Assembly (NCBI RefSeq): GCF_006345805.1
Contig: NW_021836558.1
Coordinates: 1 to 23,696, forward strand
Direction of reading: 5' to 3'
DNA: 23,696 nucleotides
DNA from: Octopus sinensis
Lineage: Eukaryota
Below, one piece after another: positions 2,643 to 21,354 of this stretch. Below the pieces are notes generated by a model. The model saw only the letters and a program-made list of their open reading frames with translations, was not told the origin of the DNA and ran no database searches. How positions within the stretch are numbered: the stretch's first letter is position 1; each line of letters begins with the position of its first letter. A program made the translations under genes and the position numbers.

Positions 2643-2915
2643 CATTAGAAACAATGTAATTAGGTATTCCATCTGACAAATAGAACATACTTTATTCAAA
2701 AGATAAAATATCAAGACAAGAGGAAAGAATTCTATAGAATTATCGAGGGTTTAATATGAAGAAAATTAAAATTAGAACACCTACAACATTAGCTTATCAT
2801 AAAGATGTGATTCAGAGTATCTAATCATATGAAATGTCTCGTCCTTTTCCCTCTCTCACTCACTCCCCTTCTCTCTCTCTCTCTCTCTCTCATTTTCTCA
2901 TTATATATATATATA

Positions 2916-3291
2916 CTAGCAGTATCGCCCGGCGTTGCTCAGGTTTGTAAGGGAAATAACTATAAAGCATTTTTAGAGAGTTATAGCCAAAAAATAGCAA
3001 ACAAATGGAAAAAAATGATGGTAATTTTTTTTGAGATTTTAAAAAGGTGGAGTTGCGTCCCCTAGACAGTTTGTGGTTCGGTTTCTGATTCTCGACCCAT
3101 GTCGAATTTATCGATTTTTTTCAGAACTGGAGGAACTTTTCAAAATTTTCGCTGCGTTAGTTTTGAATTAGACTTGGGCTATGTGTTGTCAAGTTCATCA
3201 GAATCGGTTGAAAGCCGTGGTCAGGGGAGGGTACAAGCAAACAGACACACAGAAACACGCACAGACAAACTGCCGTTTATATAGAGAGAGA
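2916..3291 (-). mobile_element. Non-autonomous Helitron, chimeric variant (shared 3' end, different 5' part)
   Basis: CTAG at 2916-2919 and the hairpin are near-identical to copy 1 over ~110 bp, then the sequence is unrelated. It has ACAG/ACAC short repeats and a 5' TC (GA at 3290-3291) next to a T. Confidence 0.7.
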
Positions 3292-4435: not shown

Positions 4436-4953
4436 AGTGTGTTTTATGAAACTTCGGGAGAGATGTACAGCAAGTTGTACTTTCAGATATCCTTTCTTAA
4501 TGCAGGCGGACAAGCACTCTTCAGGGATAAAGCATCGCTCCTGAACTAATCACTGGAGTATTTCTTGACTTACCCCGACACCATCTATGTGGCCTGTTAC
4601 TCAGCAGCTCATCGTAACCAACAAGAGCCGGAGAAAATAGACATTACACGTGAATCATTCATTGAAGAGATTGTTGGAAGAGATTGTGGAAAGATAACAG
4701 GAGCCAATAGAATCCTACCAGAGATTCAGAAGAGTGAGAGCCCAGCGTTACACACCGAACATTACTTTTTAATCAGCTTCAATGAACAAAGTAATCTACC
4801 AAGGGACCTCTATGATAAGTTATCGTCACCGTCTAAAATTACTAACAGGGGAGGAAAATGTGCTGCCTGTTGTAGTAAAACCCTAGCAACAAATATGTGA
4901 TTTTTTTTAAGGATAAATAGGAAACTAGTGTTCGTCCTCTTCCCAGGGGCATA

Positions 4954-5259
4954 TCTTTATATATAAAAGTGAAGTTGTGTGAGTGTCTGTCTCCTACGAT
5001 TTAGATTCCTAACTACTCCCACATTTTGCGGTGCAGTTTAACCAAAACCGGGTATCTTATAGTCGTGATTCATATCGAGCCCTTCTGGGTATTAGCGCGC
5101 GTCTACGATGAGTCTACGATTTTTAAAAAATTACCATCTTTTTTTCCCATTTTTAATGCATTTTTTTTTTTTGCTAATATATAAGGGAAGTAACTCTCTG
5201 AAAATGCTTATATAGTTATTTCCCTTACAAACCCGAGCAACGCCGGGCGATACTGCTAG
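4954..5259 (+). mobile_element. Non-autonomous Helitron, copy 2
   Basis: A|TC start (4954), hairpin at 5232-5247, CTAG|T end (5256-5259). Reverse complement of 325-720 lacking one internal repeat unit. Confidence 0.85.
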
Positions 5260-5281
5260 TGCAAGATATAATGAGAAGACT

Positions 5282-5561
5282 ATTGCAGCGTGGAAGGTTT
5301 TTGTAAGCCATTTAAAAAACACACAAAAGTCGTTCGATTCACTTCAACATTTAAGTTTAATTTGTCAAAATATTTTCGTCGCTATAAGACTGCGACCTGT
5401 TCACTGACAAAAATCCGTGCTGCATCTTAAATGTTGAAGTGAATCGAACGGCTTTTGTGTGTTTCTTAAATGGCTTACAAACACCTTCCACGCTGCAATT
5501 GTTTTCGTTCCAGAAACACGATCTCAGATCAAATCACTTGCTATGCAAGTACATCTCCGTA
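5282..5561. mobile_element. Fold-back PLE-like mini-element with 12 bp TSD
   Basis: Inverted arms 5282-5355 and 5426-5499, flanked by direct repeat AATGAGAAGACT (5270-5281, 5562-5573). A further fragment lies at 21294-21319. Confidence 0.75.
5361..5411 (-). ncRNA. Minimal type I hammerhead ribozyme-like motif, G3-C8 core variant
   Basis: Minus strand: P1 UUUGUCA/UGACAAA (7 bp); core GUGAACA+G; P2 GUCGC/GCGAC with 9-nt loop; GAAA; palindromic P3 AAUAUU; UUU triplet. Confidence 0.65.
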
Positions 5562-6362
5562 AATGAGAAGACTGAAATATATTAATTAGAATGACATTGT
5601 AAGGTGCAATTGTTGTGGTTTAGGTATGGCTTTTCTTTTTATTGTTCTGGGTGTTCGATAGTGTGTTTCTTGCTTTGTTGACAGAAGATGACAAATATAA
5701 ATTAATTAGAATTTCCCCCGATATTTTCCCAGTTTCTGCTTTCTTGCCTGTTTGTTTTACTTTTTATCGCAACAAACCTATATAATTAACAATATCGGTA
5801 AAAATCCTGGAATTGGTATAATTGCGTTTCTATCAGGTTCTTAAAACAGTCGTGTAACAAAAGATATACTCATTAACACCAGTAATCTAATAAAGCGAGT
5901 TATTCATAACAAAAACTAATGGCTTAATTGATATTTTCACAAAGGAAACATGAACAGTAACCTTGTTACTACACGTGCCATCGAAAGAACTCCTACGTGG
6001 TTTCTGCTAAAACAACCATTAAATATCTCTCAAACCATACTCTACTGCCTTACAAGTGGAAAGACAATGATAAACATGAAAATCTTTATTACTGAAACAA
6101 CTTAGACGATAATTCAACTCAGATCATAACTGGCCTGGGACAACATTAGCAGTGTACCTACGCAATGTCATAACTAAAACTCATTTGAGTCGGAAGGAAT
6201 CGATTTTCTTACTGCAAAATTCTCGATATGAATCTCTACATACACCAATCAGTAAAATTTCATGTTTCATAGAACAACATGTGGAAATAAACATGTAGAA
6301 ACGCTTCAACAATGTTGTTTCATCAATGGTTAAAGATAAAATAGATGAAACACAGATGTTAA

Positions 6363-17341: not shown

Positions 17342-17617
17342 ATATTGTATAAAAGATCGTAGGTAAGGCCAAAACAATGCGAAGTGAATGCAAGGTAAAT
17401 CACTAGAAAACAAATATGTGAATTAATGTAGACTTACCTTGTATTCAATATTTTGGGGTAATGGCTCTATTTTCTCAATTTCTTGAAAATGGGGTCATAA
17501 CCCCGAAATATTGAATACAAGGTAAGTCTACCTTAATTCATGTATTTGTTTTCTTGTGATTTACCTTGCATCTACTTCGCATTGTTTCGGCCTTACCCAC
17601 GATCTTTTATACAATAT
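17342..17617. repeat. Long fold-back palindrome (~133 bp arms, 10 bp spacer), PLE-like
   Basis: 17342-17474 is the reverse complement of 17485-17617 with scattered mismatches. Confidence 0.92.
17480..17515 (+). ncRNA. Minimal hammerhead-like motif, U3-A8 core variant
   Basis: P1 UUC/GAA (short, next to the inversion point); core UUGAAAA+U; P2 GGGGU-caua-ACCCC; GAAA; palindromic P3 AUAU; AUU triplet. Confidence 0.5.
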
Positions 17618-20823: not shown

Positions 20824-21354
20824 GTAAGAACTCCTTTTATTCTTTCTTTTATATAAACTACATCTTAATACTTAAGCATGGGTAAATGTCTTTTGTTTTG
20901 TTTGGTCTGGAGGACGAGCTTTCCCCATGGCCTTCACAGACTCACCAAGATTAGACAGGCTGATGCTGTTAACTGATGCAAATCGACAAATGCTGGAAAA
21001 ACACGTACATGGTAAAAATTCCAGAAGGTTCATATTTTGGAGAGAAAGGAAGTGAGACTAGTGCCTCTTTTTGTGATAATTTAATTTTTTCTGTTTATCT
21101 GAAGTTGATGTATTTATCATTGTTTACAGCAAAATACAATGAAAGAATTGAAACCAGAAAGAAAGCTAAAACCACACACAGTTATCATATCGTGTTTACT
21201 TGACTTACCTGAGCGGCCAGGTAGCTAATTCGTTAATTGTAAACCTTATCTGCAGAATGTAATGCCATTAGATAACTGTAAAAATATAATTTTAAACACC
21301 TTCCACGCTGCAATTGTTTATAATTTTTAAGTTTTTCATAAAATTTCGCGACGT

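Follow-up and report, generated by a model that had tools for sequence, protein, structure and literature searches.

A head-to-head insertion of an abundant, probably Penelope-like repeat carrying a G3-C8 hammerhead-like core in Octopus sinensis

What kind of element inserted at positions 5270–5573 of Octopus sinensis contig NW_021836558.1, and is the hammerhead-like motif that it carries, in which G3 and C8 replace C3 and G8, a working ribozyme or a remnant of one? We analyzed the window, that is, the whole stretch of 23,696 nucleotides (assembly GCF_006345805.1, forward strand), together with public sequencing contigs and the literature. The reading that we favor, with a probability of roughly 0.6, is that the locus holds two head-to-head copies of a repeat of ~220 nt, likely the terminal repeat of a non-autonomous Penelope-like element (PLE), placed there by one reverse-transcription event, and that its G3-C8 core is family-wide and predicted to allow slow cleavage, in dimeric form or aided by protein.

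The original prediction described 74-bp inverted arms around a minus-strand G3-C8 hammerhead fold, bounded by a 12-bp target-site duplication, and all of these parts are present. The arms (5282–5355 and 5426–5499) are complementary at 71 of 74 positions. The exact 12-mer AATGAGAAGACT has only two occurrences in the window, 5270–5281 and 5562–5573, which enclose 280 bp; given the local composition, such a flanking match is expected by chance at a given site with a probability of about 1e-7. The 62 bases that separate the right arm from the right repeat (5500–5561) lack a pairing partner, and the inverted repeats are therefore not terminal. The features of the locus, and of a second insertion of the same family, are as follows.

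5270..5281, plus strand: left 12-bp target-site duplication (inferred), an exact direct repeat of 5562–5573
5282..5427, minus strand: hammerhead-bearing copy, read from 5427 to 5282; depth is continuous across 5355/5356
5282..5355, minus strand: 74-bp arm, lying 3′ of the hammerhead within the repeat; 71/74 paired with 5426–5499
5361..5411, minus strand: minimal type I hammerhead-like motif (descriptor match, shuffles; P1 and P2 by RNAfold)
5411–5405/5367–5361, minus strand: P1, 7 bp (sequence, RNAfold)
5397..5404, minus strand: core strand G3 U4 G5 A6 A7 C8 A9 plus an extra G9.1 (sequence)
5396–5392/5382–5378, minus strand: P2, 5 bp, with closing pair G10.1-C11.1 (sequence, RNAfold)
5391–5383, minus strand: loop 2, 9 nt (sequence)
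5368..5377, minus strand: G12 A13 A14, palindromic P3 (AAUAUU), and U17 (sequence; layout per PMC4209133)
5426..5561, plus strand: second copy, inverted and 5′-truncated, arm plus tail (depth collapse at the junction)
5500..5561, plus strand: 62-nt tail, at one end only (contigs exit at 5562)
5562..5573, plus strand: right 12-bp target-site duplication (inferred), an exact direct repeat of 5270–5281
21286..21327, plus strand: second insertion from this family; its 26 bp at 21294–21319 match 5479–5504 exactly (blastn 26/26, E 3e-8)

The predicted fold, with its 7-bp P1, 5-bp P2, core, GAA, and AAUAUU, is found as described, and the layout needed two additions that the prediction had omitted: the extra G between A9 and P2 (position 9.1, at 5397) and H17, which is U (at 5368). 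From hammerhead numbering, the cut site is predicted between 5368 and 5367. The Watson-Crick 3-8 pair is present, and U4, G5, A6, A9, G12, A13, A14, A15.1, and U16.1 are intact. Metazoan PLE hammerheads are described as having a base between 9 and 10.1, a G10.1-C11.1 pair, and a palindromic P3, as cutting weakly and as dimers, and as commonly having U17 (PMC4209133). All of these layout features, including H17, are present here, the extra base being G against a consensus of H. The literal core CUGANGA, with C3 and G8, is absent; with G3 and C8 in its place, we class the motif as a variant and not as a canonical member of the PLE minimal type I hammerheads. Two further observations concern the same strand. 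Loop 2 (5383–5391, minus) has the potential to form 6 bp with a stretch that starts some 20 nt upstream of P1, a match made by eye that is possibly due to chance and is left out of the evidence; the two commonest loop polymorphisms would retain this pairing as G-U. In addition, G3 and C8 both contribute to CAG words after a U-rich tract, which resemble a splice acceptor (5397–5412, minus).

Public contigs were used to see whether other copies share these features. Of 24 public runs listed, 17, under four organism labels, contain 0.30–0.77 of the sampled words. Four runs were aligned to 5341–5760, the small-share metatranscriptome runs X18–X20 being left out, at 80% likeness, and differences were listed from 4%, so that the comparison covers families at least 80% alike, with rare variants falling outside it. 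The aligned contigs numbered 10,700 of 36,192,745 in run X2 (organism B), 8,948 of 28,342,437 in X8 (organism C), and 666 of 792,775 in X16 (organism A, RNA by guess). Raw DNA reads in X21, which carries the organism A label of X1, gave 0 of 12,895,792, which is surprising for a family of such abundance; the result may reflect a label or filter effect and counts as no test. In X2, the summed depth is 0.8–3.8 million over the element versus 18.6 on the right flank; the two values differ by four to five orders of magnitude, which indicates a very abundant repeat, although summed depth is no copy number. X2 contig 16 covers 5539–5760 with 0 differences, and organism B thus has the same insertion. 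An empty site was absent among the loose ends listed in the public contigs (508 further loose ends were found).

Both the core and the stems are kept in the other copies. No variant reaching at least 4% was seen in X2, X8, or X16 over 5395–5412, which hold the core strand and the 5′ strand of P1, or over 5361–5376, which hold the 3′ strand of P1, U17, P3, A13, and A14. G3 and C8 are present in more than 96% of the aligned depth, so the swap is family-wide and was already present in the master copies, as expected from the earlier claim of a natural double-transversion core. Changes within the motif occur at CpG sites in P2 and at G12, at 2–7% in X2 and X8 (2–5% for the CpG decay at G12), and one such change accounts for 40% of the depth in X16. 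Loop 2 varies at 5384, 5386, 5388, 5390, and 5391. In a comparison of polymorphism across the element, 5425, 5428, and 5515 were set aside because they reflect the junction or indels, and 5384, 5391, and 5514 because their states are nearly private to this copy. None of the 10 non-CpG polymorphic sites fell within the 42 core and stem positions (P = 0.12), a pattern that does not demonstrate selection on the core.

This last value bears on the most serious competitor of the favored reading, which we consider unlikely: that the element is the same PLE and the motif a dead or repurposed hammerhead relic, carried along in a successful master copy. With P = 0.12, the family may be young enough for fixation to reflect the master copy only, and G3-C8 may persist for another reason, such as the CAG words described above. 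In line with a relic, insertion in vitro proceeds without cleavage (PMC11167929), and in Drosophila virilis a Penelope intron has its end at helix I (PMC4209133). P1 and P2 both appear in the RNAfold prediction, together with a G3-U17 wobble that could represent an inactive fold; this possible pairing and the departure of G9.1 from H count against activity. On the other side, the 3-8 pair survives the two transversions, and nine other core bases, the stems, and the palindrome are intact, a combination for which selection on the fold is the simpler account; no splice joint was found among the 15 joints listed for X16 (15 of 74). Depth shows no step at the predicted cut (2.65M versus 2.91M), so the copies do not mainly start there.

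A bolder reading, which we consider less likely than not, is an active, naturally selected subclass of PLE hammerheads, defined by G3-C8 and a bulged base, that would here rank among the most numerous ribozyme families of an animal genome while being invisible to every CUGANGA descriptor and to Rfam.

The contigs of X16 also hold a pattern that may reflect double-stranded RNA. Seven substitutions reach at least 4% in X16 and stay below 2% in both other runs. Five of them are A>G or T>C changes in the arm (5467, 5468, 5475, 5476, and 5499) at 7–17% in X16, in 15–46 of 666 contigs compared with 7–37 of 10,700 in X2; they reach 1% or less in the two other runs, and the differences lie on both strands of the arm. 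The remaining two are C>T changes, in 6 and 7 contigs, and none of the core adenosines has an A-to-I-like signature. The A>G/T>C pattern fits A-to-I editing by ADAR of hairpins made from head-to-head copies; because X16 is RNA only by guess and its organism label differs from those of X2 and X8, an allelic difference is also possible.

The contigs also revise what the unit is. The original prediction took the fold-back element as the unit, and this does not hold: the family unit consists of a short leader, the hammerhead, the 74-nt arm, and the 62-nt tail, contiguous and ~220 nt in length. In X2, depth falls to 8,690 at 5425 and 3,166 at 5428 versus 0.7–1.9 million at 5417 and 5446. Where contigs join at 5427 from the right, they contain the 3′ strand of the hammerhead, and those exiting at 5427 from the left continue for ~15 further common letters (X2, X8) before they diverge. 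The hammerhead has the sense orientation and precedes the 3′ end of the terminal repeat; an antisense reading was considered and is overturned by the family contigs, in which hammerhead, arm, and tail are contiguous. The hammerhead-bearing copy at our locus lacks ~15 nt at its 5′ end as well as the tail, and it is joined head-to-head through a 2-nt overlap (5426–5427) to a second copy. The inverted, truncated repeat of PLE type that had been expected is thus found, its identity being the right arm plus the tail (5426–5561). Since the 12-bp duplication encloses both copies, a single insertion event, part of the earlier claim of a non-autonomous PLE, is supported. Membership among the PLEs is probable, the label being drawn from structure (the geometry and the hammerhead type). 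None of 11 frames in the window matched an RT or GIY-YIG ORF in a Pfam scan, and comparison of a 42-aa tail frame with longer proteins, which is weak evidence, gave none sharing words.

Copy ends lie at 5499, 5503–5504, and 5561–5562, which gives a fixed 3′ end near 5562, a second end near 5499–5504, and an optional tail of 57–62 nt compared with the published 30–40. At 5562, 144 contigs of X2 and 127 of X8 exit into unrelated AT-rich flanks. Head-to-head joints occur at varied places (5404–5427 to 5456–5540) and make up nine of the 15 joints listed (74 found), with one contig each. Joints 5361–5427 and 5376–5427 were excluded from this count because the P3 palindrome can fake them; two opposite-strand joints, together with two that fall inside the arm and tail, were likewise left uncounted. 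In X2, depth at the best-supported head-to-head joints is 136–344, compared with 18.6 on the single-copy flank, and re-amplification may thus have acted on some composites as whole units. The second insertion, the 26-bp end of the arm at 21294–21319, is flanked by a direct repeat of 8–9 bp, and duplication lengths within the family thus differ (12 bp and 8–9 bp). This micro-insertion (21286–21327) adjoins a SINE-like repeat.

Target-primed insertion in general yields 5′ truncation and duplications of variable length. As no linked PLE ORF was found in the window, these features would also suit a SINE-like or retrozyme-like hammerhead repeat moved by a non-Penelope LINE, with the inversion arising by twin priming or from two insertions. 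We consider this improbable: the 3′ end of the repeat carries neither poly(A) nor a simple repeat, both copies lie within one duplication, and the two 3′ ends bracketing the tail and the repeated head-to-head joints are described PLE traits. More improbable still is a MITE or fold-back DNA transposon with the arms as terminal inverted repeats. The 74-bp inverted arms, the absence of coding capacity, and the high copy number would agree with such an element, but the right arm ends 62 bp inside the insertion, the junction at 5425–5428 is nearly absent from other copies while joints vary, and the duplications differ in length, so that the family does not behave like a MITE.

The descriptor used for the motif was relaxed after the motif had been seen, to allow any Watson-Crick 3-8 pair, an optional 9.1, and a palindromic P3; it has one match in the window, and any match occurs in 2 of 400 dinucleotide shuffles of the window. 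That the hammerhead look is a chance fold is scarcely credible: this relaxation was post hoc, an Rfam search (E-values up to 5 and 10) matched no hammerhead family, and the folding z-score of the 70-nt loop on the minus strand is only -0.99, but a P1 of at least 6 with a P2 of at least 5 arose in 0 of 400 window shuffles, the descriptor matched 0 of 20,000 shuffles of the loop, and the position and strand of the motif in the repeat are those of PLE hammerheads.

Returning to the favored reading, the match to published traits of PLE insertions and PLE hammerheads leads us to propose that the element consists of the pLTR alone, is mobilized in trans, and carries a ribozyme that is compensated and probably slow. 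AT-rich DNA would be nicked by a Penelope RT/GIY-YIG protein supplied in trans, and reverse transcription would start at either end of the tail. The two cDNAs would then join at the 2-nt overlap, the hairpin being a by-product. In the transcript, a G3-C8 pair would substitute for C3-G8, the bulged G9.1 would be tolerated, and the AAUAUU sequences of two molecules could pair to form P3. Cutting would be dispensable for insertion, and hairpin transcripts may be edited by ADAR.

The C3-G8 pair of the hammerhead core was proven by engineered swaps, and in the accessible literature U3-A8 is its one natural alternative. A G3-C8 pair fixed in a high-copy animal repeat would show that the double transversion can pass through evolution, and the repeat offers a natural substrate on which the swapped pair can be tested. 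A dead motif would lend support to the idea that PLEs can spread without cleavage. If the active subclass is real, PLE lineages currently described as lacking hammerheads could conceal G3-C8 cores, and the family's head-to-head insertions would provide an intrinsic supply of double-stranded RNA edited by ADAR. Published searches require CUGANGA (methods section of PMC8557442), so genome ribozyme counts and claims of hammerhead-less PLE clades may be biased.

Several other features of the window were recorded. A repeat with a GC hairpin and a CTAGT end, which we take to resemble a Helitron 3′ end, occurs at 4951–5260 (9 bp left of the insertion), 324–723, and 2895–3032; after the copy at 2895 come 12 letters that agree with 5266–5277, probably by chance. 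Long inverted pairs lie at 6361–6621/7268–7531 (264 bp at 93%) and at 17342–17617 (133-bp arms, 10-nt loop). A frameshifted remnant of a DDE_1 transposase (PF03184; 22822–23542, minus) is the only Pfam match in the 11 frames. Within the insertion, an open frame of 58 codons spans the junction (5533–5357, minus), and an ATG frame of 30 codons reaches the end of the tail (5470–5559, plus). PLE terminal repeats often contain the start of an ORF.

The swap is not unique to this family. A 169,713-bp IMG/VR phage contig (L016:56–125) holds a full type I G3-C8 fold with P1, P2, and P3 of 5, 5, and 10 bp. In viral scans, G3-C8, G3-G8, and C3-C8 cores occurred in 18, 37, and 52 stretches, mostly by chance, and a full-fold filter passed one of each (1/18, 1/37, and 1/52), the G3-C8 fold being the only strong one and the two control folds totaling 10 and 13 bp; these counts give no enrichment of G3-C8 over the control cores. 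A viral scan with an 18-nt core stretch gave 0 matches. Two metagenome matches to a family-shaped pattern lay in GC-rich contigs without similarity to the unit and were taken as chance. What is particular here is that G3-C8 is fixed in a very high-copy animal repeat. In the accessible parts of the literature searched, G3-C8 appeared in engineered uses only and no natural G3-C8 hammerhead was found, although alignments in figures or supplements could hold one. The accessible text of PMC6765202, PMC6962438, PMC13282606, PMC8967140, PMC6155905, and 10.64898/2026.07.22.740005 contains no description of this family. Nine probes of 11–14 nt had no match in the accessible supplement of PMC8557442, in which long runs are incomplete and line-broken.

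Among known cores, the natural U3-A8 pair (PMC3088659, PMC4209133) is likewise a compensated change of the 3-8 pair, but it arises by transitions that keep the pyrimidine-purine order, whereas both positions here are transversions. An engineered G3-C8 variant is stated to perform worse with C17 than with G17, data not shown there (PMC3884650). Animal non-LTR retrozymes resemble this repeat as we interpret it, being short, non-coding, derived from PLE pLTRs, and equipped with a type I hammerhead; they form tandem arrays with a hammerhead per unit, whereas at this locus a single hammerhead lies beside an inverted partner (10.64898/2026.07.22.740005). Published PLE insertions include an inverted 5′-truncated copy, an optional tail of 30–40 bp, and duplications of 8–10 bp (PMC8557442, PMC3846280). 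The inverted-pLTR Penelope insertions of Adineta vaga and the Naiad and Chlamys elements share with our locus the head-to-head truncated copy, the tail at one end, and solo pLTRs (PMC3846280, PMC8557442), the difference being that the unit here is the pLTR only.

The PLE minimal type I hammerheads of PMC4209133 resemble the present motif in the 9/10.1 base, the G10.1-C11.1 pair, the palindromic P3, the U-rich 5′ and AU-rich 3′ flanks, mostly dispersed single motifs, and opposite-strand arrangements. They differ in having C3-G8, or U3-A8 in the Cercyon elements of Schistosoma, where this repeat has G3-C8, and the motif here has G rather than H at 9.1 and a P1 of 7 bp. The closest functional comparison is with Poseidon PAc of Anolis carolinensis, for which reverse transcription is reported from two internal sites defining a tail, with AT-rich targets, and cleavage needs protein, whereas insertion can proceed without cleavage (PMC11167929). 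PAc has a C3-G8 core and is autonomous; for the repeat described here, no linked ORF was found in the window, and its tail measures ~60 nt. Both have a hammerhead upstream of two tail-bracketing 3′ ends, AT-rich targets, and no depth step at the cut site, which in our repeat is a predicted one. In PAc, C3G and G8C singly abolish cleavage and the double mutant partly restores it, and that engineered C3G/G8C state is the natural state of the repeat described here (PMC11167929).
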